Assembly (NCBI GenBank): GCA_963750165.1
Contig: CAVVPN010000010.1
Coordinates: forward strand, 128,001-192,000
Reading direction: 5' to 3'
DNA: 64,000 nt
From: an uncultured Gemmataceae bacterium
GTDB lineage: Bacteria > Planctomycetota > Planctomycetia > Gemmatales > Gemmataceae
The translations under genes and the position numbers were made by a program. The stretch's first letter is position 1, and every line of letters starts with the position of its first letter. Positions 35,059 through 54,151 of this stretch are shown here, one piece after another. Below the pieces are notes generated by a model. It made no database searches, had not been told where the DNA came from, and saw nothing but the letters and a program-made list of their open reading frames with translations.

Positions 35059-35072
35059 TGGTGAAAAGAGAT

Positions 35073-35172: not shown

Positions 35173-35187
35173 TATATTTTGATTGGT

Positions 35188-36011: not shown

Positions 36012-36094
36012 AAGGCCACCGGTGACGCTCCCGGCTCGCCGGCTGCCAGAACCGTCCAGGCGCAGCGGGATCAGGTCTACGATTGGCGCGCCGA

Positions 36095-36251: not shown

Positions 36252-36369
36252 GGTGACCTCAAAGAATCCCCCGCCACAAAGGGCGCCACAAACGGGAATC
36301 TCTGAGGAAGCCTCAGAAAGGCAAAAGCCGATGTGCCAACCACTTATGGCACATCGGCAGACAGGCCAG

Positions 36370-36454
36370 CGGAGAGGGCGGGATTCGAACCCGCGGTGAG
36401 TTGCCCCACACGGCATTTCCAGTGCCGCACCTTCGGCCGCTCGGTCACCTCTCC
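36370..36454 (-). tRNA. tRNA-Ser(GGA)
   Basis: GGAGAGG acceptor stem, CGGCA-CTGGAAA-TGCCG anticodon arm, long variable arm, GGTTCGAATCC T-loop; CCA not encoded. Confidence 0.96.
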
Positions 36455-37311: not shown

Positions 37312-38236
37312 GAAGCGGACTCAAAACCCGGCCGGGCTCCTAGATCAGCTGTGGTTGTCTGCAGCTGTTCCCGGAGGCCCGGCCATGGACCCTGTGGTGT
37401 TCGAGACGTTGTGGCGCGCCGTTGCCCTGTACCTGCCCGCCCGCGCCCCCTCCCCCAAGGGAGGCCGCCCGCGCGTCCCCGACCGCGACTGCCTGCGCGG
37501 CATCCTCTTCGTGCTCCGCGAGGGCATCCGCTGGCGCTCCTTGCCCCAGGAGATGGGCTGCGGCTCGGGCAGCACCTGTTACCGCCACTTCCGCCAGTGG
37601 ACCGCCCTGGGCCTGTGGCCCCAAGTCCACACGCACCTGGTGGCCGCCCTGGGCCGGCGCGGCTTGCGCAACTTGGAGCGGGCGGTCGTGGACAGCGCCT
37701 CGGCCCGCGCCCAGGCCGGCGGCCCGCACACCGGCCCCAACCCGACCGACCGGGCCAAGGCCGGCTGCAAAAGGCATTTGCTGACCGACGCTTGCGGCAT
37801 CCCGCTGGTGGTCTGGATCGGGCCGGCCAACCGCCGCGACGAGCAGGCGGTGCCGGCGCTGCTGTGGCTCTTGTGGGCGGTGCTCGGCGGCGCCGGCGCC
37901 CGCCGCCGCGTGGGGGCGCTGCAGGGCGACCGGGGCTACGGCTTCCCCTGGACGATCGTGCTGGTGTTGGCGTGGGGCCTCCGCGCGCTGCTGGCCCCGC
38001 GCGCACGCCGCACGGCAGCGGCTTGGGGCGCACGCGCTTTGTCATTGAGCGCACCCATAGCTGGTTCGGGCGCTTCCGGCGCCTGCGCGATGTTACGAGC
38101 GGGAGCCGGCGCACTTCCTGGCGCTGCAGCAGTTGGCGGCCTGCGTCATCTGCGCCCGGCGGCTCCGCCAAGGTCGGCAGCCCGGCGAAGAGTTCCAGCC
38201 CTTCGCCCAGGCCGCCTAGGGTTTTGAGTCCGCTTC
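37312..38236 (+). mobile_element. IS5-family (IS1031-like) insertion sequence
   Basis: Terminal inverted repeats GAAGCGGACTCAAAACCC / GGGTTTTGAGTCCGCTTC flanked by a TTA duplication. Confidence 0.9.
37385..38219 (+). CDS. IS5-family transposase (apparent frameshift near 38005)
   Basis: GGRPR, G..WR.LP, VDS, GCKRHLLTD, GDRGY, then IERTHSWF..FRRL in the shifted frame. Confidence 0.88.
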
Positions 38237-38669: not shown

Positions 38670-40817
38670 ATGCCAAAAGGTGATGCGGGCGAGTCCCCAC
38701 CTGCACCGCCGAAGTACGCGATGACCATCTCGCGGCTGACAGTCGATAAACTCGGCATCAAACTTTACGACCGCGTTTCCGCCGCCATCGCCGAGGTGGT
38801 GGCGAACAGTTACGATGCGGACGCTACTGAGGTCACCGTGTCCGCCCCGATGGGCGAGCTGCTGGCAACCAAGCATGGTGGAGTTCTTCGGGACAAAGGG
38901 TACGTAATCGAAGTTCAGGACAACGGCATCGGCATGACCGCCGATGAGGTCAACCAATTCTTCCTCGCCGTTGGTCGGGAGCGCCGACTCGATCCCAAGC
39001 GAGGCGGGGCAACCAAGATCTATAAGCGCCTGGTGATGGGTCGCAAAGGCGTGGGGAAGCTCGCGCCCCTCGGCATTTGCCAGCGGATCGAGGTGATCAC
39101 GGCCGGAGGCAGCGAAGTCAAGGTCGATAAGGAGAAGGGGTACGTCACTTCGCACATAATCCTGAACCGGAAGGACATGCTGGCGGACACGGACTCCAAC
39201 TATGTCCCCGACATTGGAAGGTTTGACGGCACGCTGCGCCCCGAGAAGGGCACGATCATCAGGATGCGGATGTTCGATCACCGGATCGTGCCGGAGCTGG
39301 ACGACTTCGAGCGGCAGTTGTCGCAACGGTTCGGCGTTCAGTCGCCGAACTGGAAACTGGTGCTTCGGGACAACCAGAAGACGGCTGCCGATCCGGACGC
39401 GACGCGGACGGTCGGCGAACTGAACATCGAGCTTCGCCTCGGGACGCGGATAGAGTTTCGCGAAGAACTAACTCCGAAGAACAAGAGCTACTCGCCACCC
39501 AAGTATTTGGCATTCGACGAAGGTGGGAAGGCGATGAAGGATCTGAAGGGCTCGTTCGAGTTCGAGGGCAAAGAATACCCTGTTACCGGCTGGGTTGGCT
39601 ACTCGAAGGTGCCGTACCGCGATCAGCAGATGGCGGGGGTTCGCATTTACTGTCGGGGAAAGCTCGCTGCGCAAACGCTGATTTTCGGCCGCAAGGCCGG
39701 CTTCACCGGCGAATACGACATCCGGTCATACTTTGTCGGCATGCTTAACGCCGACTGGCTCGATGACGAGGAAGACCTCATCCTCACGAGCCGTCAGGAC
39801 ATCCTGTGGTCGGAACCGCTGGCCAGGGCATTCGAGGAGTGGGGGCAGGGAGTTGTCAAGAAGGTCGGGACGATCACCCGCGAACCGGTCAGACAGGCTG
39901 CGTGGGACTTGTTCGTCGAGGAAACAAATGTCGAGGAAGAGGTAGAAGAAACGTACCCCGCTGATGAGCAGAGAGACATCCGCGAGAAGACAATAGAGAT
40001 CGCCAAGATGATGGTGAAGGCGGCTCGTCCTGATGAGTTACAAGATGAAGCGCGTCGGCGGTCGATGGTCGATCTGGCACTACTTGTGGGACCGCACATC
40101 ACGCTAGAGGAAAAACTGATCGAAGCGGCTGAGAACGACGACAACACGCTGGAGGTCGTTGCGGACATCCTTCGCACAGCCAGAGTTGCGGAGTTGACGT
40201 CATTCGGGCGCATTGCCGACGACCGGGTCAAGGTAATCAAAAAAGTCGAGAAGATGAAGGACGACGAGGACACCCTTGACGATGCGTTTCAGGCGCTGAT
40301 CGAGGAGTCCCCGTGGCTGATCAACCCGGAGTGGTCGCCAATTACTACCAACACGGGACTGGAGAAGCTGAAGGGGGAGTTCGTAAAGTTCTATCGCAGC
40401 GAAACCGGCGAACGCATTTCACTGTACAAGATGGACGGCTCTGACAAAGAAAAACGCGCCGAATTGGTGATCACTAACCAAGACCGAGTGATCGAGGTCA
40501 TCCTTATAAAGAGGCCCGGCGATCCACTCAAGAATGCGGAGATGGACCGACTTGTGACGTACCACGACTCGATGGATGCCTTCTTGCACAAAAAGGGTGA
40601 AGAAGACTATTTGAAAGGGTTCGAGAAGTTCCACATCACACTCGTCTGCGACTCATTGGCTCTCAAGGGGGCGCAAAAGGTGGCATTCGATGGGCTGCAA
40701 GCAAGCGGCGCGCTGACGCGGGTGGAGTGGGCCAAATTCCTCCAGCGGACGCGGAAGATGCACGAAGCCTTTCTTCAAGAAGCAGAGAGGCAAAGAAGCA
40801 ATGCCGCGAAGCGATAG
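38670..40817 (+). CDS. GHKL (MORC/HATPase_c_3) ATPase with a degenerate C-terminal PD-(D/E)XK-like domain
   Basis: EVVANSYDADA, DNGIGM, GRKGVGK, GT motifs; PWLI...RAELV...VILIKRP tail. Confidence 0.85.
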   Translation: MPKGDAGESPPAPPKYAMTISRLTVDKLGIKLYDRVSAAIAEVVANSYDADATEVTVSAPMGELLATKHGGVLRDKGYVIEVQDNGIGMTADEVNQFFLAVGRERRLDPKRGGATKIYKRLVMGRKGVGKLAPLGICQRIEVITAGGSEVKVDKEKGYVTSHIILNRKDMLADTDSNYVPDIGRFDGTLRPEKGTIIRMRMFDHRIVPELDDFERQLSQRFGVQSPNWKLVLRDNQKTAADPDATRTVGELNIELRLGTRIEFREELTPKNKSYSPPKYLAFDEGGKAMKDLKGSFEFEGKEYPVTGWVGYSKVPYRDQQMAGVRIYCRGKLAAQTLIFGRKAGFTGEYDIRSYFVGMLNADWLDDEEDLILTSRQDILWSEPLARAFEEWGQGVVKKVGTITREPVRQAAWDLFVEETNVEEEVEETYPADEQRDIREKTIEIAKMMVKAARPDELQDEARRRSMVDLALLVGPHITLEEKLIEAAENDDNTLEVVADILRTARVAELTSFGRIADDRVKVIKKVEKMKDDEDTLDDAFQALIEESPWLINPEWSPITTNTGLEKLKGEFVKFYRSETGERISLYKMDGSDKEKRAELVITNQDRVIEVILIKRPGDPLKNAEMDRLVTYHDSMDAFLHKKGEEDYLKGFEKFHITLVCDSLALKGAQKVAFDGLQASGALTRVEWAKFLQRTRKMHEAFLQEAERQRSNAAKR

Positions 40818-41947
40818 CCCGATCAGACTGAATGCCGTGGACATCTTCAGTGGCGCAGGCGGATTGACAACCGGCTTGAAAAAAGCTGGTTTTCGCGTCG
40901 TTGCCGGCGTGGAGATCGAGTCCCATGCTGTCTCCACGTTCAAGGTGAACCACCCGGACACCCATGTCTTCAAACAAGATGTTACGACAGTGCGCGGCTC
41001 CGACTTGGTCGAGCAGGCTGGCGGCGAAGACATCCACCTGCTCGCGGGATGCCCGCCCTGCCAAGGCTTCACGAGTTTGACCTCGAAGTACAAGCGGGGC
41101 GACCCCAGAAACGAGTTGATCGGGGAACTGGCGCGGCTAGTCGAGGAGGCCCGTCCCCATGCGGTCATGATGGAGAATGTTCCCGGTCTTACTCAAAAAG
41201 GCGTAAAGCTGTTCGACGCTTTCCTGAAGATCATCGAAGCGGCGGGCTACGTCCCTGAATACGAGGTGCTCCAAGTCGCGGACTACGGAGTTCCCCAAAG
41301 TCGCAGGCGGCTCGTATTGCTGGCAGGAAGGGGGTTCAAGATCGCTCTCCCGCCCGCAACGCATTCGCGCACCGGTGAGGGCCGGCTAGCGAAGTGGACG
41401 ACGGTTCGCAGTGCGATCGGGGACATGCCAACGCCGATCACGATGGCGGAAGTCAGGCGATCTACGAGCCCCGACATGCACTCCTGGCACGTGGTCCGGG
41501 AGTTGTGTCCGCGGAATCAAAGTCGCCTCCGGCATGCAAAGCCGGGGGATCACTGGAAGAAAATTCCAAAACGGCTTCGCCCACCGTGCCATCAGGACAA
41601 AAAGGCTGGGTTCAGCAATGTGTACGGGCGGATGAGCTGGGACGAAGTGTCGCCGACGATTACCGCCGGCTGCACGACACTCAGTAAGGGGCGGTTCGGG
41701 CATCCGGCAGAGGACCGCACGCTTTCCGCGCGCGAGGCTGCCATTTTACAGACTTTCCCGAGGGACTATGTGTTTGACTCTCCTTATATGGAATACGTCT
41801 GCGCGATGATCGGAAACGCCTTGCCGTGTGATTTCGCCGAGGTGCTCGCGAAGACTTGCGGTGAGGCGATCCGGGCGCACTTACTGCGCGGTTGCCGATG
41901 CCAAAGCCGCCGGGAAGCCCTCCTCCAGAAAGCCCCGGAAGAAGTAA
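40801..41947 (+). CDS. dcm: DNA (cytosine-5)-methyltransferase (as assembled, reads through into the ATPase to 43581)
   Basis: FSGAGG, GCPPCQGF, ENV, QSRRR, R.LS.REAA.LQTFP, IGNA. Confidence 0.92.
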
Positions 41948-42018
41948 ATGCCACCGGTTCAACGCCATCACACCAAGTACACAGCCAGAAGCAGGCTGAT
42001 CTGATCTGGAATGCCATC

Positions 42019-43581
42019 ATGGAATTCACAGTCCTGAAACGCGGTGCAAGGTTGCCGAAGAATGCCCGTGGCAAGGCATTTCTGATTCCGGACGACTGGG
42101 CCGACCGCGGGAAGTACAAGACGCAGTACCAGCTTACTATTTGCGACCACGGCGGCATGGCTCACACGATTGGCGATGTCAAGATCGGCGAATTCGGAAT
42201 GTCTGAAGGTCAAGCCCGCCCTTCGATCACAAGTCCCTTTGAGAAGCTTGACAAGAAGTTCTTCTCGCTCGGCCAGGACGGCACCTATTACGAGCGATTG
42301 ACGGAACTTGGAGCGGCGACAAGGAAGACGGTATTGTCCGCACTGCGGGATGTCGCCGCGGACAAGCAGCTCTTCGCAGGGGCATTGAAGGAAGATGTCA
42401 CCACCGAATCTCTTCTCAGTGCAGTTACGGCGGTTACGGTTCAGGGCCAATTCAGTAGGCTGGCGGTTGGCGGCGCGAGACTTACCGACTATCAGTTTAA
42501 GTACACAGCCCCCACCTTTGACAATCCCGAGGCGGATCTCATCCAACTATCGTTCGATGTAAAACATTCGTCAAATCCGCCATCGAATATCCATGTCTTG
42601 ATCGGCAAGAATGGGGTCGGCAAAACGCGGTTGCTGCACTACATGACGCTCGCGCTCATGGCGAAGGAACCTGACCCTGTCAATCGTGGGGTCTTTGAGC
42701 GGACAGACGGTGTGGCGGGCACGGCCCTGTTTGCGAACTTGGTGTCCGTTGCATTCAGCGCATTCGATCCATTCGAGCCTTTACCTGACCGCCAGGCTGA
42801 CGATGAGGGAATGCAGTACACCTATGTCGGCCTCAAGAACAGAAGCAAGGCCGGCGGGGCGCTCAAGAACCTAGACATGCTCACCACGGAGTTTGTGAAG
42901 GGCTTCCAAAAGTGCATTTCGGGACCAAAGGTCGATAGGTGGCGGACCGCTCTGCAGACGCTTGAGTCGGACTCAAATTTCAGGGACCACGGAGTCGTTC
43001 GGCTTGCGGAGGGGCTATCCGAAGAGGATGAAGACGAGGACGCCGATCCTGACCTGGACCAAGCCGGCCGGGCGGCTCTGCTGTTTGGCAAGTTGAGTAC
43101 CGGTCACAAGATGGTACTACTGACTGTCACGAGGCTCGTGGAAACCGTTGAAGAGCGGACGCTGGTGCTCATCGACGAGCCGGAGTCCCACCTGCATCCG
43201 CCGCTGTTGTCTGCATTCATTCGGGCACTTTCGGACCTGCTGATCGACAGGAATGGCGTAGCGATCATGGCCACACACTCGCCCGTCGTTCTTCAAGAAG
43301 TGCCTGCCAACTGCGTCTGGGTTCTGAGGCGGAAGGGGCAGATTGTCCGTCCCGTGCACTTGAAAACAGAAAGCTTCGGTGAGAACGTTGGGCTGCTGAC
43401 AAAGGAAGTGTTTCGGCTGGATGTCACCAGCTCAGGCTTCCACAAACTGTTGCAGGAAGCGGTGGACGAGAACCCGGACTACGATGCCATATTGAACAAG
43501 TTCTCAAACCGGTTGGGAGGAGAGGCAAAGGCAATTCTTGCCGCCCTGATTGCAACAACGGACGAGGGGGAGGCGAAGTAG
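42019..43581 (+). CDS. ABC/AAA_21 ATPase, Septu PtuA-like
   Basis: GKNGVGKT Walker A, LSTGHK signature, LIDEPESHLHP Walker B/D-loop, ATHSP. Confidence 0.85.
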   Translation: MEFTVLKRGARLPKNARGKAFLIPDDWADRGKYKTQYQLTICDHGGMAHTIGDVKIGEFGMSEGQARPSITSPFEKLDKKFFSLGQDGTYYERLTELGAATRKTVLSALRDVAADKQLFAGALKEDVTTESLLSAVTAVTVQGQFSRLAVGGARLTDYQFKYTAPTFDNPEADLIQLSFDVKHSSNPPSNIHVLIGKNGVGKTRLLHYMTLALMAKEPDPVNRGVFERTDGVAGTALFANLVSVAFSAFDPFEPLPDRQADDEGMQYTYVGLKNRSKAGGALKNLDMLTTEFVKGFQKCISGPKVDRWRTALQTLESDSNFRDHGVVRLAEGLSEEDEDEDADPDLDQAGRAALLFGKLSTGHKMVLLTVTRLVETVEERTLVLIDEPESHLHPPLLSAFIRALSDLLIDRNGVAIMATHSPVVLQEVPANCVWVLRRKGQIVRPVHLKTESFGENVGLLTKEVFRLDVTSSGFHKLLQEAVDENPDYDAILNKFSNRLGGEAKAILAALIATTDEGEAK

Positions 43582-43584
43582 ACC

Positions 43585-44439
43585 ATGCAACCTCTCACGC
43601 CCATTACCGCCACGGCTGAGGAAGTGTTCCTGGCATGTATTAGCAAAATCAAGAAAGCGGTCCTGAAGCAGAAGCTAACGGCAATCAAGGGTGACATTGT
43701 TAACTTTGACGTTGCCTATGTAGCCGCAGGCAAGAAGCCTCCCGGAACACCTGTTTCGTTCTTTTCGCTTTCTGCCCACAGAAAAGTGGGAGCGGTCACA
43801 AAAAAGGAGATGGAGAGGGTATATGATGGGCGTATGGTCGGTGGACCTGGGCGGAAATACTACGACGAGATCCTTGATCTATGTGACGACGACATCTGCC
43901 CGCTTTGCGGTCTGCGTCTTGTCGAGACGCTGGATCATTACTTACCTAAGTCTCGATATCCCGCCCTTGCCGTTGCGCCAAACAACCTTCTTCCAGCATG
44001 CTACCCGTGCAACATCAAAAAGCGCACTGCGGTTCCGAAATGCGTTAGCAAGCAGTGCATTCACCCATACTACGACAACATTGATGCCGAAGTGTGGCTT
44101 ACGGCGTCCATCGAAAAGCCTCAGACGCCCGTCGTGGTCCTCTTCGATGTTGCCCCTCCCGCTTCCTGGGACACGGTTACTAAAAAGCGCGTCAAACACC
44201 ATTTCAAAGAACTGGCGCTCGGTCGCTTGTACTCGATCGTCGCGGGCGGAGACATTGTCGGCAACAAGCACGAGTTCACGAGGCTCCGGAACACTGCCGC
44301 TGGTGCCGCGGCCGTCAAGAAGTATCTGCTGGAGCAAGAAGCCACTCGACGAGCGGCGCGACGAAACTCGTGGCAAGCCGCGCTCTACAAAGCCCTAGCC
44401 ACCGATGCATGGTTTTGCGACACGGGCTGCCTTGGTTAG
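43585..44439 (+). CDS. HNH endonuclease, Septu PtuB-like
   Basis: CPLCG...TLDHYLPKSRYP...NLLPACYPCN, IHPYYD. Confidence 0.87.
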   Translation: MQPLTPITATAEEVFLACISKIKKAVLKQKLTAIKGDIVNFDVAYVAAGKKPPGTPVSFFSLSAHRKVGAVTKKEMERVYDGRMVGGPGRKYYDEILDLCDDDICPLCGLRLVETLDHYLPKSRYPALAVAPNNLLPACYPCNIKKRTAVPKCVSKQCIHPYYDNIDAEVWLTASIEKPQTPVVVLFDVAPPASWDTVTKKRVKHHFKELALGRLYSIVAGGDIVGNKHEFTRLRNTAAGAAAVKKYLLEQEATRRAARRNSWQAALYKALATDAWFCDTGCLG

Positions 44440-44713: not shown

Positions 44714-46108
44714 TTACCTCCCTCGCCCCTCAACCGCCCTGGCCGCGTTACTCGCCGTGCGCAGCGCGTATTTCTCCCCCTCTTCCTGCGCCTTGCCGCT
44801 TTCCTGCATCAGGCGGGCCGCGGTCTCCTCGACGCTCCATCCCCAATCGATCGCCAACACACAGAAGGTGAAATCCGCCTTGCTTCGGTCCGGCCGCCCT
44901 TCCTTCCAGGCCTTCGGGTGTTCCAGGCATTGCCGATAACTCGGCCAGCCGCAGGCGTCGAGTGGCCTGGGACGGGGAATCACAGTCGCGGTGAATTTCT
45001 CCTGTGGCGCGACCAGGCCGAGGGCGTCTAGTTCGGCCTGGGTCACCACCCTGCCCGGGCTTGTGGAAACCGTCTCGACGCGCGGGAACGCCGGCGTGTA
45101 CTTCTCCTTGAAATTCATGCTGCCGCTGACGCGCACGGCGCCCGATGCGGTCAGGTCGGCCCCTGCCCCTTTCCGCAACCGCCGGGCGAAATCGGCGTCT
45201 CCGTCGGCTACGGCAATCCAGGCCTGGAAGCTGCCGGGACTGGTGCGCAGCACCAGGAACGACACCGGCCGCAACCGCACCGCCCCGTCCTCGCCAAGGT
45301 CGTCGAGTTGGATCAGCGTGGCGCCGGCGGACCGCGGGCGCACGATGACGTTGTGCCGCCGTGCGGCGGCTTCCCGGAGGATGGCGGGCATGTCGGATCG
45401 CAGCTGGTCGAGCGGGCGGTTTCCTCGGAAGCCGACCTTCTCGCCGGCGGCATCGGTGAACGTCAGGTCAAACCGCCCGGCGCCGACGCTGGCGAAGGCG
45501 TCGAGCATCTCCCGCGCCAGCGCCCCGGCCCGTGTTTCTTCTTCTTCCGGTGACTGCGGCAATGGTTCGTGACCGATTCCGGCCGCCTGATCCTCCGCGG
45601 AACCGCAGGAGCGGCCGCCGCCGTCAGCGTCCCGGGGACTTGTATCGCTGACTGCAAGGCCCCACCAATCGAGGGTCGGCGACATACCGTGCTTTTCGCG
45701 GTATTCCTGGAGGATGAGCAGGAACTGCTCATGCAGCACGTCGCGGCTGTCTCCGCGAGCGGTGGGATCATACTCGGTGGATTTGTCGAGCGGGTACACC
45801 CAGGGTTTTCCCGGCTCATGCGACCGCCACGTCCAGCCGAGTTCCTTAAACTGGTCGGTCAGTTCACGGCCAGGGTCCGGGTCCACGCCCTCCGGCGCCG
45901 TGAACACCACCTGCACCTGGGCGAAGCGGCGGTCGCGGCGGAAGCGGGCATAACGGCCGTTGCCGATGTCGATGATGTCCTCGCTGATGACCTGGGGCAA
46001 GCGCCTGGTCCACCGGCGTCGGCGCGGCTGCACCGGCTCGCCGGTATCAGGCGGCGTCAGGTCATCGGCCTCCCCTTCCCCGGCCATCTCGGGCGCCGCG
46101 TCGTTCAC
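44714..46108 (-). CDS. RepB'-type (AEP) DNA primase with extra N-terminal domain
   Basis: LIQLDDL, RTSPGSFQAW, GAD...RVSG..NFK, C-terminal DRSKADF...Y..RT helical bundle. Confidence 0.78.
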   Translation of the reverse strand: MNDAAPEMAGEGEADDLTPPDTGEPVQPRRRRWTRRLPQVISEDIIDIGNGRYARFRRDRRFAQVQVVFTAPEGVDPDPGRELTDQFKELGWTWRSHEPGKPWVYPLDKSTEYDPTARGDSRDVLHEQFLLILQEYREKHGMSPTLDWWGLAVSDTSPRDADGGGRSCGSAEDQAAGIGHEPLPQSPEEEETRAGALAREMLDAFASVGAGRFDLTFTDAAGEKVGFRGNRPLDQLRSDMPAILREAAARRHNVIVRPRSAGATLIQLDDLGEDGAVRLRPVSFLVLRTSPGSFQAWIAVADGDADFARRLRKGAGADLTASGAVRVSGSMNFKEKYTPAFPRVETVSTSPGRVVTQAELDALGLVAPQEKFTATVIPRPRPLDACGWPSYRQCLEHPKAWKEGRPDRSKADFTFCVLAIDWGWSVEETAARLMQESGKAQEEGEKYALRTASNAARAVEGRGR

Positions 46109-46157
46109 GGGACGTCAGGATGCGACACCAGTGGGGAGGATTTCGTGTTGTGCGGGA

Positions 46158-46364
46158 TCACGGTTTCTTGCCCTTTGATAGCTTTTTCGGTTGGGTGGGG
46201 AGTGGGCCTGGCTCTTCGAGTGCCGGCAGCGCGGCCTCCGAAGGCGCGGGGGTGAGGTCCAGGAACTCAAGGTAGATGTCCTTGAAGACGGCCCCGGCTT
46301 CGGGGTGCAATGCTGCCAGCGGCGTTGACAGTTTTGGCGGCGCCAGGACCATTCTCGCAACCAT
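46158..46364 (-). CDS. Small hypothetical protein
   Basis: ORF between co-oriented genes; N-terminal part duplicated at 47077-47133. Confidence 0.3.
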   Translation of the reverse strand: MVARMVLAPPKLSTPLAALHPEAGAVFKDIYLEFLDLTPAPSEAALPALEEPGPLPTQPKKLSKGKKP

Positions 46365-46386
46365 GTCGCGAGTTCTGGCTGGTCAC

Positions 46387-46863
46387 TTACACGCCGAGGG
46401 AAAAGAAACTTTTCTGCTCCAACCCCCTCTCCTGGCGGATCAGGTTGGCGGCCTCGAAGGCCAATTGCTCGGCCTCGTCGCGGTACTGCCGCGCCGCGGC
46501 CGGGTTGATGCGCTTGTACCAGAGTTTGTTCTCGCCGTCGAAGCGGTAACCGTGCTCCTCCTTCAAAAGCCTGCGGACTTCCTCCTGCGGTTTCTCGTCG
46601 AACTGGATCGTCATGCGCCGGTTCGTCTGGTCTTCGCGGAGGTGGACGCCCGCCTCCACGTCGGTCCAGATGCCGACGATGCGCGTGCTCCAGGAGGCCC
46701 TGCCGTCCTGGGGCGCTTCGCCGACAGGCGTGGCTTCCGCGGCCGCGGCGGCGGTCGGCGGCGTTTCGTTGCCGCTCAGGCCCTCCGATGCCGGGTGATC
46801 CGTCTGGGGTTGTGCGAGGTTTTCCGCGTCCTGATCAGGTTGCGCTTTCTTCGGCCGTACCAT
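46387..46863 (-). CDS. Hypothetical plasmid protein
   Basis: GAGGAAGGA RBS; domain resembling the primase N-terminal extension. Confidence 0.6.
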   Translation of the reverse strand: MVRPKKAQPDQDAENLAQPQTDHPASEGLSGNETPPTAAAAAEATPVGEAPQDGRASWSTRIVGIWTDVEAGVHLREDQTNRRMTIQFDEKPQEEVRRLLKEEHGYRFDGENKLWYKRINPAAARQYRDEAEQLAFEAANLIRQERGLEQKSFFSLGV

Positions 46864-47699
46864 AAGCATTCCTTCCTCGGTTGTTGGTGGGAAGGCCGGT
46901 ATAGCGCGGCGGCGTGGTGAAGTAAAGGAGATGTTTGCGGCCGGCAAGTCAACATTCCCGCGCAGACACGCCTCGCTACGCTCGGACAGCATTTCCGAGC
47001 GTCCTGCCCCCAGCAGGACTCCTCGGTGCTGTCTGTGCAGAAATGCCCTCGGCCCGGCAAGCGCGGGTTCCTCGGACCGGCATCAGGGTGCAATTCTGCC
47101 AACGGTGTTGACAGTTTTGGCGGCGCCAGGACCGTCCGCTCAAACAGGCGCCGTCCTGCTGTCGCTACGAAGCAACCGAACGTTATCCCAGCCGCACCGG
47201 GCGTGGGGACCGGCGGCCGCGGCAACTCCCGGGGAGCCCGGCCGGCGGTGTCGGGGAGGTAACTGGTGCACGGGCCACCCAGGGCCGGCGAGCCGGTGGT
47301 GGCATCGCGCCACTGTGTGCCACAGGAATGCCCACCGAAGCGCGAAGGCGGCGCTGGGTAGGGTGGGAGTGCCCCCTACCCTCTTTGCTGTTCCTGGACC
47401 AATTCTGAAGGAATGGAAGGGGTCCCCGCCGCTACTTACCCTGGCGGCCGGTAAGTTGGCCAACTGAGTGGCCAACCGACTCGGCTCCTCTTCCTTTCCC
47501 TGCCGAGCCCGCGCCGCGTTAGCGGCGCCCCGCCCAGATGGGTTGCGCGGCGGCGTGAGCCGCGCTCATTTTTAGGCTTGCCAGAGGGGGTTGCAGGGGG
47601 AGATGAGCAAATCATCTCCCCCTTCCTAAACGATATTTGCAGTCCGCCAGGACTGCTCAGTCTCCATTTGCGTAGCAAATGGCTTCGTGTCAACGCAGG

Positions 47700-47969
47700 T
47701 TATCCACAGGTGGCGCCTGTGTGTTATAGATGAGTTAATTACTTGTGTTAAAGGGCCGAACTCGACGTGCAAGCCCTTGTAGAAGCTGGAACATTTCATA
47801 GCACTTCCGTGTAAATACACGAAAGGTTCTGGGCAAATGCACGATGGTTTTCGTGTAAAAGCACGATAACGGCTTGCGCCGTGTGATCGCACGAAACGGC
47901 CATTTTTCGGGTGAAAACACGATGCTTGACATTTCTGTGTGAAAGCACGAATATGGGTGAAAACACGAA
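47700..47969. promoter_or_regulatory. Plasmid replication origin: DnaA box, AT-rich segment and 7 iterons
   Basis: TTATCCACA at 47700-47708; YGKGTRAAARCACGAW-type repeats at 47808, 47830, 47852, 47880, 47908, 47936, 47954, directly upstream of repA. Confidence 0.82.
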
Positions 47970-47980
47970 ACGGCCGACCG

Positions 47981-49024
47981 ATGGACACCCCCCCGACGCG
48001 CTCCCCCCTCCTGCCCGAACGCCACCCGATCCAGGACTTCTTCATCTGCGACGTGGCCGACGCCATCCCCAAGGACGACATGGGCTCGATGGAGCACCCG
48101 ATCTTCTCCCTGGCCACCAAGCCCGACATGGGCGTCCGGGAGTACGAGCACAACGGCGTGCGCCTCGCCGTCCTGCCCAGCGTCCTGGGGCTGGCCACCA
48201 TCCACGACAAGGACATCCTCATCTACTGCATCAGCCAACTCGTCGCCAAGCTGAACGCCGGCGTGCCGCTGCAGCAGACGCTGCACCTCAAGGCCTACGA
48301 CCTGCTGGTGGCCACCAACCGCAACACCGACGGCCGCGGCTACGAGCAGCTGAAGGGCGCCCTGGACCGCCTGAGCGGCACCCGCATCCGCACCAACATC
48401 CGGACGGGGGACCAGGAGGTCACCGAGGGCTTCGGCCTGATCGACGGCTGGAAGATCGTCCGGCAGACGAACGGCGGCCGCATGACGGAGCTGCGCATCA
48501 CCCTCTCGGAGTGGGTCTTCAACGCCGTCACCGCCCGCGAGGTCCTGACGCTGCACCGCGACTACTTCCGGCTGCGCAAGCCCCTGGAGCGCCGCATGTA
48601 CGAGCTGGCCCGCAAGCACTGCGGCAAGCAGGACGAGTGGGCCATCTCCCTGGAACTGCTCAAGAAGAAGTGCGGCTCGGCCTCGGACGAGTACGAGTTC
48701 CGGCGGCTGGTCGGCATGATCTGCGACGAGGACGCGCGCCACCACCACATGCCGGATTACGCCGTCGCGTTTGACGGCGCCAACGTGCGGTTCGTGAACC
48801 GCAGCGCCCTGCGCCTCCTCCCCGCCCCGCCAGCGGCCTACCCCGTGCTCGACCCGGAAACCTACCACGACGCCAGGACCGTGGCCCCCGGCTATGACGT
48901 GTACTACTTGGAGCAGCAGTGGCGGTCCTTCTGGGTCGAGAGCGGCAGGCCGGAACTGACCAACCCGGACGCGGCCTTCCTCGGCTTCTGCAAGATCCGC
49001 CACGGCAAACAGCCAAACCCGTAA
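47981..49024 (+). CDS. repA: Plasmid replication initiator protein A (RPA family)
   Basis: LLPERHP..DFFICD...KDD..SMEHPIFSL, GLATIHDKDILIYCISQL, YFRLRKPLERRMYELARKHCG. Confidence 0.9.
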   Translation: MDTPPTRSPLLPERHPIQDFFICDVADAIPKDDMGSMEHPIFSLATKPDMGVREYEHNGVRLAVLPSVLGLATIHDKDILIYCISQLVAKLNAGVPLQQTLHLKAYDLLVATNRNTDGRGYEQLKGALDRLSGTRIRTNIRTGDQEVTEGFGLIDGWKIVRQTNGGRMTELRITLSEWVFNAVTAREVLTLHRDYFRLRKPLERRMYELARKHCGKQDEWAISLELLKKKCGSASDEYEFRRLVGMICDEDARHHHMPDYAVAFDGANVRFVNRSALRLLPAPPAAYPVLDPETYHDARTVAPGYDVYYLEQQWRSFWVESGRPELTNPDAAFLGFCKIRHGKQPNP

Positions 49025-49113
49025 GTGGCTTGCCTGTGGCGTAAGGAATTTGCCCGTCGTCCGCTCAAGGGGTGGGCGGAATTGGCGAAAACGGACCATG
49101 CTCCGCGAGTCCC

Positions 49114-49368
49114 TCAATCGGGTTTCGCCGCCTCTCCGGCCGGCGTCAACTCCCGCTCGATCAGGGCGCGGACCTTGTCCTGGATGGTCACGCCCTCGAC
49201 GACGCACCGGCCCTTGAACGCCGTGTGCAGCGGCGCCGGGAGGTTCAGGGTCAGCCGCTTCTGCGGCCCTCCTTCGCCTCGCACCCACTGGTCCGGAAGG
49301 GCCGGCAACTCCTCCTTGGCCGCCCGCGGCCGCACGCTGAAATCTACCGTCTTTTTCTTGCCCGTCAT
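49114..49368 (-). CDS. parG: ParG-like ribbon-helix-helix partition protein
   Basis: KRLTLNLPAPLHTAFKGRC...TIQDKVRALIEREL; overlaps the parA stop. Confidence 0.78.
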   Translation of the reverse strand: MTGKKKTVDFSVRPRAAKEELPALPDQWVRGEGGPQKRLTLNLPAPLHTAFKGRCVVEGVTIQDKVRALIERELTPAGEAAKPD

Positions 49369-49991
49369 GACGCCAGCTTCTGCACCTCCCTGGCCAGGGA
49401 TTGAATCTCCTTGCTCGCCGCGCTGTCCGCGTCGAGTTCCAGCACCGTGCGCCCGTGGGCGCTTTCGGCGAAGGCCACCCGCTGGCAGACGGTCGTCTGG
49501 AGCACCGGCTGCGGGTACTGCTTGAGGGCCTTGGCCACGTCGCGGCCGATGGCGGTGTTGGCGATCTTGCGGTTGATGACGAACGCCGCCCTGAGCTGGG
49601 GCTTGTAGGTGGCGCACTCCTGCAGCAGCTTGACCGTCTCCTCGGCCGCCCAAACATCGAACTGGCTGGGCAGGACCGGGATCAGGACGGCGTCGCTGGC
49701 CATGACGGCGCTTTTGGCCACCTCGTACACCCGCGGCGGGCCGTCAATGAGGACCACATCGAAGTCCCTGGCCATCTTGGCGAGTTCCAGGTGGAGGATG
49801 GGCTTGCTCATGCCGATGACGGCGAACGGCGTGTCCTGGCCGCGGGCGGCGACCCAGTCGAGGGCGGACCCCTGGGGGTCGGCGTCCACGACCAGCACGC
49901 GTAGTTTGCGGGCGGCGAGGGCGGCCGCCAGGTTGACCGATAAGGTCGTCTTGCCGACGCCGCCCTTCTGATTGATGACCGAGATAATCAA
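49365..49991 (-). CDS. parA: ParA (type Ib) partition ATPase
   Basis: NQKGGVGKTT, DADPQGS, IDGPP; TTG start. Confidence 0.92.
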   Translation of the reverse strand: MIISVINQKGGVGKTTLSVNLAAALAARKLRVLVVDADPQGSALDWVAARGQDTPFAVIGMSKPILHLELAKMARDFDVVLIDGPPRVYEVAKSAVMASDAVLIPVLPSQFDVWAAEETVKLLQECATYKPQLRAAFVINRKIANTAIGRDVAKALKQYPQPVLQTTVCQRVAFAESAHGRTVLELDADSAASKEIQSLAREVQKLAS

Positions 49992-50039
49992 GCACTGCCC
50001 TTTCGTTGCGTTGCACTGGCCGTTCCCTGGCGCGTCGGC

Positions 50040-50400
50040 AGTTTGCCGCTTTTCCGGGAAGGCGGAAAACCGCTTCCCCGCCGACCCGCCTTCCTGCATA
50101 AATGGTTTTGCGGCGATGTCAAGCAGGTTGTAACCGGGCGAAGCGGCAAAGCGTAAAGGCGGAAAGCCGCCGAAGCGTTTCGGCACTTCGGCGGGTAAGC
50201 GTGGTTGATGTTAAGCGTTCTGGCGCGTCGGCGGAAAAGCGTATTGCCGCCGACGCGCCGAAGAGGGAAAGCGGTGAGGCTGTTCGGCGTGGAGGCGGCA
50301 AACCGCTCAGGCGGCAACGCGCCGAAATACAGAGGCGGTAAGGCGACCTGGCGGAAAGGCGGCACTGTGGTAACGCGGCAACACTGCTATCCGCCGATGT
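50040..50400. repeat. Degenerate ~8-bp periodic GCGG(A/C)AA(A/G) repeats upstream of parA (centromere/operator candidate)
   Basis: e.g. AAGCGGCAAAGCGTAAAGGCGGAAAGCCGCCGAAGCG and many similar units. Confidence 0.55.
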
Positions 50401-50707
50401 GATTCCCCGCCAAGGCGTGTCCCCGCCGACACAGTTAAGCGGCTGACTGAATCCGGGGCTTTCCCGGGGAAATCCCCTTGGGTTGACACAGTCAAAGATT
50501 CCGAAGCGAAGCCTTCGGGAAGACGCCTGCCCTTCTACTGGCTTTACCACACCTGCGAGACTTCGTGCCCGCCAGCGTGTGCCCTGGGGGCGATTTGGGG
50601 GGTAGGGATGGGGGGCCGACCGAGGCATCCGTATCGGGACGATGGCATCCTTCAACCGCGGGAGAGGGGAGAGCGGAGCCTCCCACCAGGCAGGGCGGGA
50701 CCGCCCA

Positions 50708-51820
50708 TCAGTGGCCGGACATAGCCGGGGCTGAAGGCACGACTCCGGTGTTGGCGCGGCGGCGCACCCGCCGGATCGTCCGGCCGTTCACACCGGCCTG
50801 GAGGCTGATTTCGTCGGCCGGAAGCCGCTCCGCCTCGGCCGCGATCCACTTTACCGCCGCTTGCGTCAGGCGGAAAGCCGGGTGAATGCCTTCGGGCAGC
50901 GGGGCGAACGTGTGGCCGCAGGCCGTGCAGCGAAAGCGGCTGCGGGTCAGGGCCAGGCGGACAGGGCGGCCGTGTCGCGGATGGTCCCACACACGGGTCG
51001 TCCTGCCGCCGTGGCCGGCCAGCCGGGTGGCGTCCGGCGCAGGCCGCGCGCAGCCCGGGCAGCTGACGGGTTCGTGGCGGAACCGGGCATGCACCAGGTA
51101 GCCGCCGGTGCCGGAGGACACGCGCTCCACCGTCCACCCCGGTCGGGCAAGCAAGTGGTCTCCCAGGCCGCCGCGGAAGAAGTCAGGCGCCGCCGCCGCG
51201 AGCAAAGCATCGTCCGATTCCCCGTGCAACCGCTGAAGCCAGCCCAAAGCGAGGGGAATTCTTTGATCCGGCCAGCGGGAAAAGCCCGATCCGTCGATGC
51301 TGTCGCAGCCGAGTTGGTAAGCGTGTCGGAACCGTTTCCTGGTGTTGCACCTTCCGAAGTGCGACCATTTCCCGCGCTGCTTCGCCTCTCGTGCGACCGC
51401 GGCGGCGTGCGGACCGAGTTTCCACTCCGTGCTGCCGCCGATGAAGAGGGCGTCGAGGTCGTCCCAGGAAACGGCGAGGCGTTCGAGCCCGTCCTGGGCG
51501 ACGAGGGCGACGGGCAGGCCGAGGGCGCGGATCACCGGCGACCAGACGGCGAACCGCCGCAAGGTGGCCGCCGCGTCCCCGACAACATCGGGGCAGGCCA
51601 CGAACCGGCACCCCGGGTGGCCAGCGATCCGGCCGAGCATCCGGCAGAACCGGGCCGCGTCGAATCCGGTGAAGGCGGCGTTGTCCGCCGCCCAGGGAAC
51701 GCCGGCCGTCAGCAGCGGGTCCACGCGGTTGCCGGCCCCGGGCACGACCAGCGCCCCGAGGTAAGGCGAGCCGAGGTGGCGGCGCAGGGTGGCGGTGGCT
51801 CCAGAGACGAACAGGCGCAT
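50708..51820 (-). CDS. TGT/DpdA-like TIM-barrel transglycosylase fused to an ISL3-type Zn-ribbon/HTH
   Basis: Ordered motifs DNAAF, PDV, QDG, FIGG, HFGR, DSIDG; C-terminal CPGC...RVWDHP..GRPV.L...RFRCTACGHTF. Confidence 0.65.
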   Translation of the reverse strand: MRLFVSGATATLRRHLGSPYLGALVVPGAGNRVDPLLTAGVPWAADNAAFTGFDAARFCRMLGRIAGHPGCRFVACPDVVGDAAATLRRFAVWSPVIRALGLPVALVAQDGLERLAVSWDDLDALFIGGSTEWKLGPHAAAVAREAKQRGKWSHFGRCNTRKRFRHAYQLGCDSIDGSGFSRWPDQRIPLALGWLQRLHGESDDALLAAAAPDFFRGGLGDHLLARPGWTVERVSSGTGGYLVHARFRHEPVSCPGCARPAPDATRLAGHGGRTTRVWDHPRHGRPVRLALTRSRFRCTACGHTFAPLPEGIHPAFRLTQAAVKWIAAEAERLPADEISLQAGVNGRTIRRVRRRANTGVVPSAPAMSGH

Positions 51821-51941
51821 GGGGACGGGAGGAGTGACAAACCAGGTGGAAAATGCCACGCGGCGACAGACTTCGCAACCGGAAATGTCCACGCGCCGGC
51901 CGCCGTTGCGGCGATGGCGATGCGTTGCACGTGTTCGGTGG

Positions 51942-52154
51942 TTATGAGTACCTCCTGTTACTGTTGAACGCCGCAGCCCGCCACGCCTCCATGGCGCGCT
52001 GGTACGTCTCGCCGAGCGCCCGTATCTCCGCCGTCTGCCTGTCGGGCTGGTAGCGGTAGTCACCGGCCTTCCTGCCGTAAGCGCGCCTCAGCGCCTCACC
52101 GAAGCGCTGGTCGGCTTCCTGGGCGAGAAGGTAGAGGGTGAGTAAGCGAGTCAT
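51942..52154 (-). CDS. Small hypothetical protein
   Basis: RBS GAGGAGG; overlaps the upstream stop codon. Confidence 0.55.
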   Translation of the reverse strand: MTRLLTLYLLAQEADQRFGEALRRAYGRKAGDYRYQPDRQTAEIRALGETYQRAMEAWRAAAFNSNRRYS

Positions 52155-52399
52155 GGTGCTTCCTCCTCTGGGTTGCCGTGCTCGGCGTCGAAGTGCATCC
52201 TGGCGAGCCGCAGGGATTGATCGACGTAGGCTTCCGCCTCGCCGCCGTCCTCCGCTGCGTAATGCGCGGCCAGGTGCAGCAGGTCAGCGATCAGGTCGGT
52301 GATCTCGACCGTGCTGGCCTCGAAGTCCTCGCCCTTGGCCGAGACGTAGGCTTCCAGGGTTTCGGCCGCGCGAGCGGAACGGATCGTGTTGTTGGTCAT
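52151..52399 (-). CDS. Small acidic hypothetical protein
   Basis: RBS GGAGGA; N..R..RA...L...TDLIADLLH motif. Confidence 0.6.
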   Translation of the reverse strand: MTNNTIRSARAAETLEAYVSAKGEDFEASTVEITDLIADLLHLAAHYAAEDGGEAEAYVDQSLRLARMHFDAEHGNPEEEAP

Positions 52400-52935
52400 A
52401 CTGTCCTCCCGGTCGCTGCGGCGACGGCGTCTCGACAAGCGCGGGCGGCTTCGGCGAGGTCGCCCTGTTCCCAGCGGTCCACCACCATTCGGCAGGCGGC
52501 AAGGAGGGACGCCGCGGCGTCCCGGAGCCGGGCCGGTGCATCGAGGTGCCGCAACACGCCATCCTCCTCCGGGGTATCCACCCGCCATTCGTCCCAGTAA
52601 TAACCTTCATCGCATTCCTCGACGGGGGCGTCCGCAACGGCCTGGCGGGCTTTCGCCAGGGCCTCGTGCGGTGATTCCGCGTCCACCTCGCACCGGGCGA
52701 AGAAGGGGCGGTCACACCAGGCGGTGACGAGGTATGTGGTCGTGGTTCTCACGGCGGCGGCCATCACCTGCATCGCGGCAAGAGTCGGCGGCACCGGGTC
52801 GGTCCCCTCGGGCAGCCAGAAGTGGCGGCTCGTCACGAGGTCATCACCGTGGGCGTCACGGATGATGGCGATGTCCTCGGTGCCGTCGCGGTCGAAATGT
52901 AGCGACCAGGGCGTGTTGAGTTGAAGATGTGTCAT
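52396..52935 (-). CDS. Hypothetical protein
   Basis: RBS AAGGAG; translationally coupled within the operon. Confidence 0.6.
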   Translation of the reverse strand: MTHLQLNTPWSLHFDRDGTEDIAIIRDAHGDDLVTSRHFWLPEGTDPVPPTLAAMQVMAAAVRTTTTYLVTAWCDRPFFARCEVDAESPHEALAKARQAVADAPVEECDEGYYWDEWRVDTPEEDGVLRHLDAPARLRDAAASLLAACRMVVDRWEQGDLAEAARACRDAVAAATGRTV

Positions 52936-52949
52936 GATGGTCTCCTTTC

Positions 52950-53228
52950 TCAATAGTCCAGGGGGAGAAGAATCGTGGTCACGGAGCGGTCGGCTTCGGT
53001 GATGATCCAGAATCGCTGCACGCCGTTGCCGTAGGCCGACAGCAGGCGGCCGCCTTCCTTCAGCGAGCGGTTGTTTTCGTGAACGTCCTCCGCAGGAATG
53101 TCGCCCCAGTCGCCACGGGCGTGGCGGCTCAGGGCTTCGTGAATTGCCTTGCTGTCCAACTGGGAAGCGGCGTTGGCCGTGATGACGACCCGCCCGAGCG
53201 GGAAGGTGAATCGAACCGTCCTGGTCAT
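52950..53228 (-). CDS. Conserved plasmid-related protein
   Basis: FPLGRVVIT...RHARGDWG...N...G.RLLSAY...WIITEADRSVTTILLP.DY. Confidence 0.75.
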   Translation of the reverse strand: MTRTVRFTFPLGRVVITANAASQLDSKAIHEALSRHARGDWGDIPAEDVHENNRSLKEGGRLLSAYGNGVQRFWIITEADRSVTTILLPLDY

Positions 53229-53292
53229 AACAAACTCCTTGTTTTGGTGGTTGAAAAAAGCCGGCGGGCGAGGGTACCCGCCGGCATCCAAT

Positions 53293-53553
53293 TCAGGCGG
53301 CTGCCTGTTCGGACTGCTTGCGGGCCTTGCGGTCGGCTTCAAGCTGGTGCAGAACCCAGGTGTGGGCCAGGTCGAGCAGTTTCGCGGCCGGCAACAGGTC
53401 CTCGAAGCCCAGGTTGTCGGTCTCGCGCCAGCCCTCGTCGGCCTTGTAGCCGCGGGTGAGTTTGACGGAGTACCAGTTGCCCTTGTCGGAGAGGTTCCTC
53501 CAGACGGTGGCTTGCAGGCTGCCGATACGAAGTTTGTGTGCGGGTGATGACAT
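53293..53553 (-). CDS. Small putative ssDNA-binding protein
   Basis: P..K.RIG.LQATVWRN...YSVKL.R.YK...W..T...DL motif; RBS AAGGAG. Confidence 0.6.
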   Translation of the reverse strand: MSSPAHKLRIGSLQATVWRNLSDKGNWYSVKLTRGYKADEGWRETDNLGFEDLLPAAKLLDLAHTWVLHQLEADRKARKQSEQAAA

Positions 53554-53608
53554 GATGTTCTCCTTCTCGTTTGCAGGCCCGACCATCGGGCCTTTCGTGG
53601 ACGCGCCC

Positions 53609-53712
53609 GAACCCGGCTCAGGCCTCCGGAGCAAGCGGAAAATTGGAGGGGCCGCGCAGCGGAGGAACCGATTTTCTGCTTGGCGCAGCGCACGCCGGAG
53701 GACGCCGGGTTC
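53609..53712 (+). other. Branched stem-loop in the oriT-candidate intergenic region
   Basis: Nested pairings GAACCCGGC/GCCGGGTTC, CCTCCGG/CCGGAGG, AAGCGGAAAATTGG/CCGATTTTCTGCTT. Confidence 0.6.
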
Positions 53713-54151
53713 AGCTTCCACAAGAAAGGCCAGGGGGTGGGTTGCCGGAACGAAGGGGGGCATCAGGACAGCGTCCCTGCACCGCAGGCTTCTCGGCGGC
53801 CGGCAGCGCTTCCGTCGGGCCGAAGACACGGGCAGTGCTGGGGTGGCAAAGGAGGACCCGGGCTCCGGACACACACGAGTCGCAGGCAGGCGGGAACGTC
53901 GCCATCCGGTAGGGAACTGTCGCAGAGCCCAACTGTCCGGCGTGGCCGCTGACGGGCAGCAGGGAAGCGGGCAGGGGTGAAGCGTCCGGCAGGCGCGGGA
54001 AAGGCGGGGGCAGGGCTGACAGGGGGGTGACACCGCGTTGGCATTGGCCGTGCGGCGCCTGGCCGGGGGTGCAGTTCTGGGAGACAGGAAACGCAACCGG
54101 GAGTAACGTCACGGTTGATTTTTTGCCAGCATTGAGTGCATATACTGGCGC

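Follow-up and report, generated by a model that had tools for sequence, protein, structure and literature searches.

A degenerate GHKL restriction enzyme with an embedded Septu-like ATPase-HNH pair in a Gemmataceae defence operon: a candidate restriction enzyme turned sensor

What becomes of a restriction-modification (RM) operon when its restriction enzyme loses catalytic residues and a second anti-phage module lies among its genes? The question is raised by a four-gene block in a 64,000-nucleotide stretch of DNA from an uncultured Gemmataceae bacterium (assembly GCA_963750165.1, contig CAVVPN010000010.1, positions 128,001 to 192,000 of the forward strand; hereafter the window). The block encodes a GHKL ATPase, a C5 cytosine methyltransferase (dcm), a PtuA-like ATP-binding cassette (ABC) ATPase and a PtuB-like HNH nuclease (Table 1). 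The locus is built from known kinds of parts; the pairing of a nuclease-dead GHKL enzyme with a Septu module is unusual and forms a testable signature. A system of these four genes, or of five with vsr in relatives, best explains the observations described below. The chance is slightly better than even that the locus holds a restriction enzyme turned sensor, in which a nuclease-dead MORC-like ATPase clamp would read methylation, or bait anti-restriction proteins, and directly switch on a Septu-type effector.

The initial annotation, made from the letters of the window, described four co-oriented modules, and the coordinates and profile matches bear this out. The GHKL gene and dcm overlap by 17 nt, and the HNH gene starts 3 nt past the end of the ATPase gene, as it had said. 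It had also remarked on the low guanine-plus-cytosine (GC) content of the block; the value is 0.573, compared with 0.660 in the left flank, 0.673 in the right flank and 0.665 in the genome, and only one of 1662 non-overlapping 5.77-kb windows genome-wide is as low or lower. A promoter and terminator scan returned no more sites than shuffled sequences.

Table 1. Features of the four-gene block and of the neighbouring carrier element (window coordinates).
Feature	Position	Strand	Basis and remarks
GHKL ATPase gene	38670-40817	+	715 aa; Pfam HATPase_c_3, E 2e-15; GHKL (MORC/MutL-like) ATPase, S5, helical region and C-terminal PD-(D/E)xK restriction-fold domain with degenerate catalytic site
Degenerate nuclease motif II-III	40461..40511	+	D598 to E, E612 to L, K614 kept; same in P0125
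C5 cytosine methyltransferase (dcm)	40801..41947	+	Pfam DNA_methylase, residues 11-354, E 1.4e-53; 381 aa in second assembly
Apparent dcm-ATPase linker	41884..42018	+	most likely artefact: true dcm tail and 71-nt spacer
PtuA-like ABC ATPase	42019..43581	+	520 aa; PADLOC PDC-M01A / PtuA1
HNH nuclease, PtuB-like	43585..44439	+	284 aa; PADLOC PDC-M01B
RepB-primase-like gene	44714-46108	-	Pfam, RepB matches below cut-off
RPA replication initiator	47939-49024	+	Pfam
ParA	49365-50186	-	Pfam
TrwC relaxase	54152-56839	+	Pfam

A GHKL restriction enzyme with a degenerate nuclease site

The initial annotation had seen no separate restriction enzyme in the locus. None stands apart, but the GHKL protein is itself a restriction-enzyme homologue; it is the "missing" enzyme, with a broken catalytic site. 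Residues 16-706 align with the NCBIfam profile BbrUII/HgiDII (E 2e-64) at 218 bits, below the cut-off of 550 bits, and intact homologues also fall below that cut-off (234 and 259 bits). Two PADLOC profiles of type II restriction endonucleases match the protein as well. The predicted model has a mean pLDDT score (the predicted value of the local distance difference test) of 81. Its N-terminal 400 residues match MORC3, MutL and SMCHD1 with Z scores of 14-16 (MORC3 is best, with 16.1), and residues ~515-705 match N.BspD6I (Z 9.5; root-mean-square deviation (rmsd) 3.6; 152 residues aligned), SduA (Z 7.8) and FokI (Z 7.3). Sequence searches of solved structures with the GHKL protein gave no match. 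The SduA_C domain (DUF4263) was not matched in the window protein at E 0.1; it is matched weakly in relatives of both the degenerate and the intact type, and the values in intact homologues range from E 3e-6 to 3e-3, with 3/7 at or above cut-off.

The catalytic residues were compared across the family by aligning 119 of 120 listed homologues, of which 118 were counted together with the window protein; P0246, which ends before the nuclease motif, and P0125, a copy of the window protein, were left out of the counts. Glu537 (motif I), Asp598 (motif II), and Glu612 and Lys614 (motif III) are invariant in all 105 homologues outside the clade of 14 that contains the window protein. Within this clade, Asp598 is lost in every member (Gln in 11, His in two and Glu in the window protein), Glu612 is kept in nine and changed in five (Asp in four and Leu in the window protein), and Glu537 is replaced by Asp in three. 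Lys614 is kept in 14/14. The window GHKL protein has thus lost both acidic consensus residues of motifs II and III, and P0125, which was assembled independently, carries the same residues at these motifs. The ATPase residues Glu42, Asn46, Asp84, Gly86, Gly88, Lys126 and Gly129 are invariant in all 14 clade members. In a 40-row tree of the window protein and its 39 best homologues, the clade (with the truncated P0246) is monophyletic with 99/97 support, is nested among intact proteins and has long stems. Ten of the 17 family-conserved positions lost in the clade fall in the nuclease domain (beyond residue 530), compared with two of ten in the intact sister clade; likewise, this domain holds 18 of the 44 conserved residues that are specific to the clade, compared with nine of 40 in the sister clade.

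These replacements suggest that the nuclease activity of the clade has been lost. In Bacillus cereus Shedu, an Ala substitution of the motif II Asp or the motif III Glu abolishes defence (bioRxiv 10.1101/2023.08.10.552793). It is improbable that the enzyme still cuts through a rearranged site with Gln, His or Glu at motif II, in which case the locus would amount to a plain RM system that houses a second one. The universal retention of Lys614, the frequent retention of Glu612 and the prevalence of Gln at position 598 agree with such a site, and the model places motif II in a loop of low confidence (residues 588-595, pLDDT <50). However, the replacements vary and reach Glu612 and Glu537, which is the pattern of relaxed selection, the window protein lacks both acidic residues, and the equivalent mutations inactivate Shedu.

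The methylase and the Septu-like pair

The methyltransferase is predicted to be active. Its TIGR00675 match is above cut-off, the GCPPCQ (PC) and ENV motifs are intact, and the catalytic and target-recognition segments are the same as those of the intact sister clade. The protein also matches DruM2, the methylase of Druantia type II (E 5e-89), a value equal to that of an RM methylase profile, and no Dru profile was found for the other three block proteins among the matches listed (the best 25 for two of them).

In this assembly dcm and the ATPase gene are joined in one 926-aa frame (40801-43581, plus strand), which the initial annotation overlooked when it described them as separate; its two-gene description nevertheless almost certainly holds after a one-base correction. 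The PDC-M01A and PtuA1 profile matches begin at residue 407 of the fused frame. A second assembly, a 5796-nt Logan contig, encodes a separate 381-aa methylase (P0124) and a 520-aa ATPase. This methylase is identical to that of the window through residue 361 and first differs at residue 362, and its tail is present in the +1 frame of the window, where the stop ends at 41947; the ATPase is identical across its full length. The frame of dcm shifts in the window at about 41884. The Logan contig has errors of its own (it truncates the GHKL protein to 578 aa) and possibly derives from the same sample as the window. The closest dcm relative (84% identity) is likewise 381 aa long and has a matching basic tail. 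No fused protein occurs among the best 120 matches of 509-1621 aa, and none of 150 matches to the N-terminal domain of the ATPase is fused to a methylase. The mfd gene and a PPIC-type peptidyl-prolyl isomerase gene (30510-33832 and 33884-35058, plus strand) are each split across two frames, which points to indel errors in the assembly. The fusion is almost certainly a one-base assembly error. A strain that makes a real methylase-ATPase fusion protein, as the open 926-aa frame would have it, is highly improbable and was rejected on the second assembly, the unfused homologues and the other frameshifts in the window.

The downstream pair resembles Septu type I, or PDC-M01, in its order of an ABC ATPase followed by an HNH gene and in its full-length profile matches. 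The ATPase aligns from profile position 1 with PDC-M01A (E 5e-193) and with PtuA1 (E 3e-179), and the HNH protein matches PDC-M01B (E 1e-89) and, below cut-off, Pfam HNH (E 0.011). The catalytic motifs are intact in both proteins: Walker A, Walker B, the D-loop and the H-loop in the ATPase, and the CxxC, DH, N and CxxCN residues in the HNH protein. The signature serine of the ATPase is replaced by threonine in 9/9 ATPases linked to a degenerate GHKL gene. PtuA chains, from a retron and from stand-alone systems, form the top Foldseek and VIA-align rows for the ATPase (Z 15.2, 14.6 and 13.2), although ABC transporters follow only 1-2 Z behind, which is a small margin. The best match is retron-Eco7 PtuA (Z 15.2, rmsd 6.4, 301 residues aligned over model residues 147-520). 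Sequence searches of solved structures gave weak PtuA matches for the ATPase and no match for the HNH protein. The pair departs from known Septu in several respects: the ATPase is only 18% identical to retron-Eco7 PtuA and scores 42 bits against the NCBIfam PtuA profile (cut-off 500), it has an additional N-terminal domain of ~150 aa, and the pair sits inside an RM operon.

This N-terminal domain (42019-42480, plus strand) has no counterpart in solved PtuA and matches no named family; its best Atlas score (0.76) belongs to an unnamed cluster. It occurs in 1141 cluster representatives at E 0.001 and is N-terminal among 150 relatives. In P0412 (505 aa), which lacks the ATPase core, the domain is joined to a different C-terminal part, as would be expected of a movable sensor. 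A W-x-D-W motif in the domain has both Trp residues in 111/111 unlinked relatives, and one Trp is lost in 8/9 linked proteins. The loss of an aromatic residue at ATPase position 31 was also considered as a sign of coupling and was dropped, for reasons given below.

Gene order and co-divergence in relatives

The initial annotation had asked whether the GHKL-dcm-ptuA-ptuB order recurs elsewhere. It does in loci L059 and L070, where vsr follows as a fifth gene, and as far as the contig end in L060 (GHKL-dcm-ATPase). The first four proteins of L059 are 63, 75, 56 and 45% identical to those of the window; L070 (genome G466) carries the same five genes with a frameshifted ATPase. The ATPase gene lies directly 3' of dcm in all four degenerate loci read as DNA (these three and the window). 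In contrast, none of 34 intact-motif loci matches the ATPase or the HNH protein at E 1e-3. These 34 comprise 24 Nocardia loci with no adjacent dcm and ten with dcm, of which three lie on ~5-kb contigs that end soon past vsr and two (L061, L062) are near copies of each other. Loci L029, L073 and L074 (motif unmatched or gene partial), L030-L033 (weak GHKL-only matches) and L063 (dcm at the contig start, then vsr, and no ATPase in 10 kb) were left out of the counts. The intact loci L061, L062 and L072, the last of which belongs to the sister clade, have the order GHKL-dcm-vsr, and the HNH gene was found neither in the genome of L072 nor in two other intact-type genomes. Since the pair lies between dcm and vsr in L059 and L070, it was inserted between these two genes. 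As the initial annotation had noted, no vsr is present in the block, and none was found in the 93%-complete genome (tblastn, PF03852). The window lineage probably lost vsr after the pair was inserted. The loss of the nuclease site in exactly the clade that bears the ATPase is a reason for coupling that the initial annotation had missed.

Linkage was also estimated with a same-contig proxy, namely an equal size of the longest contig shared by a GHKL homologue and one of the top ATPase matches. Seven of 13 degenerate homologues are linked in this way, compared with one of 105 intact homologues (0.5 expected by chance); the ATPase list held the 120 closest proteins of at least 509 aa, so distant partners are missed on both sides, and 53 of the 105 intact homologues lie on contigs of at least 8 kb. 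The single intact match pairs a Logan-only record with a JGI-only record. P0269 is linked by DNA (L070). In one apparent exception a clade dcm protein (P0135) and an intact GHKL protein (P0311) both have a 5002-nt contig; the P0135 cluster also includes a protein from a degenerate locus, on its 96522-nt contig, and the match is probably a coincidence.

The proteins of the degenerate clade have diverged together. The linked ATPases form one group of 12 among 123 tips (11 linked, and P0034 as the twelfth; FastTree support 0.975), and in an IQ-TREE analysis of 36 rows they fall, with one short free-ATPase fragment, on one side of a 97/96 branch. The dcm proteins form a matching clade of 21 tips (0.972) that is sister to the methylases of the intact clade. 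When the proteins of seven loci are compared in pairs, GHKL and ATPase identities correlate with a Spearman coefficient of 0.98 (Mantel rank 1 of 5040), and those of GHKL-dcm and dcm-ATPase with 0.70 and 0.69; on the 8614-nt contigs more than one pairing was possible, and one was used. The lowest identities across these loci (62% for GHKL and 55% for the ATPase) indicate that the union of the two is old. The halves are modular, since each occurs alone elsewhere, but their union in this clade is a stable, old composite rather than a casual stacking. The initial annotation had proposed a methylation-coupled Septu variant. The composite is conserved and its three larger proteins fall in matching clades, which agrees with that proposal, but both modules also occur independently in relatives: the 34 intact-nuclease loci lack the ATPase and the HNH gene, and ten of ten plasmid ATPase-HNH loci lack dcm and GHKL. 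The initial annotation had named such independence, together with independent protection, as a mark of ordinary defence-island stacking.

The cassette is rare and patchy. Searches of sampled genomes gave hits in one of 401 genomes of the phylum (the window's own), five of 252 in the family, four of 401 in the class and three of 251 in a second order, and the ATPase search gave hits in 3/267 genomes. Viral contigs contained no relative of the L059 GHKL protein. The GHKL-dcm-vsr operon is a known kind of RM module, and the ATPase-HNH pair is a widespread stand-alone PDC-M01/Septu-like system. In 24 Nocardia species (loci L001-L018, L021-L024, L026 and L028) the GHKL-nuclease gene is a conserved, stand-alone, Shedu-like gene with ~38% identity. 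An archaeal (Cenarchaeum) contig (L025:7749-15719) has two full GHKL-nuclease genes, a fragment of a third, and clustered dcm sequences.

Several observations weigh against a coupling of the two modules through methylation. The window itself has no vsr. Most linkage within the clade rests on the proxy, and 5/13 degenerate homologues are unlinked by any test. All ten plasmid ATPase loci that were opened (of 33 matches) have the HNH gene and no dcm or GHKL match. The nuclease is intact in the 24 Nocardia homologues, none of which adjoins a dcm (in one, a dcm lies ~6 kb away); like the stand-alone VcSduA, they indicate that the family need not read methylation. Matching trees show joint inheritance, as in any operon, and do not imply coupling or contact. 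The correlation between nuclease loss and the pair rests on a single origin, one evolutionary event. A free ATPase in genome G602, just outside the linked group, already carries the F-to-G change in the N-terminal motif; it adjoins an unrelated gene, and no GHKL match occurs in the G602 genome. The F-to-G position also varies in distant relatives (Phe in 56 of 92 matched). This shared change and this variability are why position 31 was set aside.

A rival reading is a pair that is embedded but independent: a stand-alone Septu-like pair would have landed in an RM operon whose restriction site decayed once, and the GHKL ATPase would have been kept for another job, such as a MutL-like helper of Dcm and Vsr or non-cutting DNA binding that blocks phage. 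Each module is also found by itself, coincidence and coupling look alike when there was a single origin, and L059 and L070 retain vsr. Payne et al. describe Septu as frequently embedded in other systems and as functional outside them (bioRxiv 10.1101/2024.01.29.577857), and Iyer et al. liken these GHKL proteins to MutL in very-short-patch repair (PMC2292703). We regard independence as somewhat unlikely. Among the 38 loci read as DNA, no nuclease-dead member lacks the pair and no intact member has it, and the GHKL ATPase of the window is intact even though its genome yielded no vsr. In addition, the linked ATPases have lost 28 conserved positions, compared with 0-9 in 18 other clades, a contrast that is inflated by the lower divergence of the control clades (identity 0.69-0.97 compared with 0.62).

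Possible coupling, known systems and the carrier element

Functional coupling of either kind, through a sensor or a guard, has odds modestly in its favour. The preferred reading, to which we give a probability of roughly 0.4, is that the nuclease-dead, methylase-partnered GHKL enzyme detects foreign DNA and sets off the PtuAB-like pair. An ancestral RM operon of GHKL-nuclease, dcm and vsr would have gained the ATPase-HNH pair between dcm and vsr, and the restriction enzyme of that lineage would then have lost its cutting residues and kept an ATP-driven clamp. Dcm, which is predicted to be active from its intact catalytic motifs, would mark host DNA with 5-methylcytosine. The GHKL protein may engage unmarked DNA, or signal its presence, and recruit or release the PtuAB-like complex, whose HNH subunit would damage the DNA of the invader or a host target, as in abortive infection. 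The Dcm recognition segment, unchanged relative to the intact sister clade, and the retention of vsr in L059 and L070 also speak for coupling. The gene order, the insertion site, the residue loss and the matching clades are observed; loss of activity, contact between the proteins and gating by methylation are inferred from them.

The same evolutionary evidence would fit a guard or decoy, in which the PtuAB-like pair is bound and restrained by the disarmed GHKL protein, alone or together with Dcm, and a phage anti-restriction protein or DNA mimic that attacks this bait releases the nuclease; methylation would then be secondary. PrrC, which is released when Stp hits EcoprrI, is a model of this kind, and so is the release of PtuAB by retron-Eco7. 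Divergence of the ATPase follows that of the GHKL protein more closely than that of dcm (0.98 compared with 0.69). PrrC in EcoprrI is a precedent for embedded ABC ATPases that is cited by Payne et al. (bioRxiv 10.1101/2024.01.29.577857), and the retron-Eco7 partner holds PtuAB as a toxin (PMC12640716). However, it is not obvious why a guard should require an ATPase site that is invariant in the GHKL protein and a methylase recognition segment that stays unchanged over 20-40% divergence, and free ATPase-HNH relatives persist without a visible antitoxin gene of such a kind. We therefore consider a guard or decoy unlikely.

Comparison with known systems places the block between several of them. 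Papers on BbrUII/HgiDII and paraMORC RM operons describe MORC/paraMORC genes accompanied by C5 methylases and vsr and sometimes by HNH nucleases (Iyer et al., PMC2292703) and list GHKL-fused type II enzymes such as R.HgiDII (PMC2441816). The block shares with them a full-length profile match, the GHKL gene beside a C5 methylase, and vsr in relatives; it differs in its score (218 compared with 550 bits), its degenerate nuclease site and its inserted ATPase-HNH pair. Shedu type I-D (GHKL-Shedu, VcSduA) likewise has a GHKL ATPase N-terminal to a PD-(D/E)xK domain, a likeness reflected in the SduA fold match. VcSduA, in contrast, is a single stand-alone gene that was tested and requires both its ATPase and its nuclease (PMC12137116), whereas the block GHKL protein lacks the nuclease residues, has degenerate motifs and no SduA_C match, and is accompanied by a methylase and an ATPase-HNH pair.

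The retron-Septu hybrids retron-Eco7 (Ec78) and Ec83 (type I-A retrons) also join a PtuAB effector to an unrelated upstream module that is a potential controller (PMC12640716). In the block this upstream module is a disarmed RM pair (GHKL and dcm), which may control the effector. No reverse transcriptase profile was found on the three open reading frames of the block, and no RNA-family search was made. PrrC in EcoprrI is similarly an ABC-ATPase-based nuclease inside an RM operon (bioRxiv 10.1101/2024.01.29.577857), but the block differs in its GHKL-type host enzyme with a broken site and its two-gene effector. The text of the same preprint, by Payne et al., also describes Septu embedded in Hma, does not name PDC-M01, and states that the significance of embedding remains to be explored. 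PDC-M01 calls overlap Septu calls (PMC11811056), and inactive restriction endonuclease domains have been proposed as sensors in type 3 bacteriophage exclusion (BREX) systems (PMC12839542). A literature search found no publication that describes a Septu pair embedded with a nuclease-dead GHKL enzyme; subscription papers lay outside its coverage, and preprint supplements may list PDC-M01 contexts. The type I enzyme EcoprrI is active, and its embedded PrrC is a single ABC-HEPN protein.

The initial annotation had placed the block at the left end of a mobile element. An element with RepB-like, RPA, ParA and TrwC genes does lie to the right, and the block is at most its putative left end: the similarity shared with a sister element of this genome starts at 44714, to the right of the block. 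The carrier (44714..56839) is context and lies outside the four-gene system. No integrase was found for it among the open reading frames listed, and the only long direct repeats from the tRNA region belong to a genome-wide repeat family. The sister RepB/RPA/TrwC element, on contig C1, has 83-94% protein identity. In the slot of the cassette it carries a four-gene cyclic-oligonucleotide-based anti-phage signaling system (CBASS) with a patatin effector, a cyclase, E1-E2 and JAB (about 244100-248700; L081:8124-12680, plus strand), which marks the slot as a site for defence cargo; a Ppl-like ATPase gene lies across repB from the CBASS. The five-gene cassette of L059 is preceded by a defence island (L059:236-6727) with DrmB, a ThiF-family gene and a TCAD9/kinase-like gene, and L070 lies among housekeeping genes. 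These differing contexts indicate that the cassette moves as a unit.

Other features near the block include a fragment of an IS5-family transposase (DUF4096; 37355-38227, plus strand) just upstream of the cassette, and a tRNA-Ser(GGA) gene (36369-36454, within 35895-36454, minus strand) followed by a short frame that we take to resemble the start of an integrase and that is possibly the scar of an older insertion. Palindromic repeats at 35050-35185 and 35950-36035 are REP/BIME-like and have many copies in the genome. On the carrier, a 451-aa frame (50708-52063, minus strand) combines an unannotated N-terminal part with an ISL3 zinc-ribbon.

Annotation tools would label this locus "RM type II + Septu" and would overlook the disarmed enzyme. 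The locus addresses two open questions, namely how PtuAB is activated outside retrons and whether RM-embedded systems are functionally tied to their host operon. It offers a natural before-and-after pair: a sister clade in which GHKL-dcm-vsr is intact, and a derived clade whose nuclease is dead and into which an effector was inserted. If the sensor reading is true, the locus would represent a Septu gated by RM, which corresponds on the RM side to retron-Septu and whose intact sister clade survives. Eukaryotic MORCs act without a nuclease of their own. The GHKL protein would then be a prokaryotic MORC-like ATPase that acts without its own nuclease, and the family would provide a bacterial model for the step from a MORC-nuclease to a nuclease-free MORC reader.

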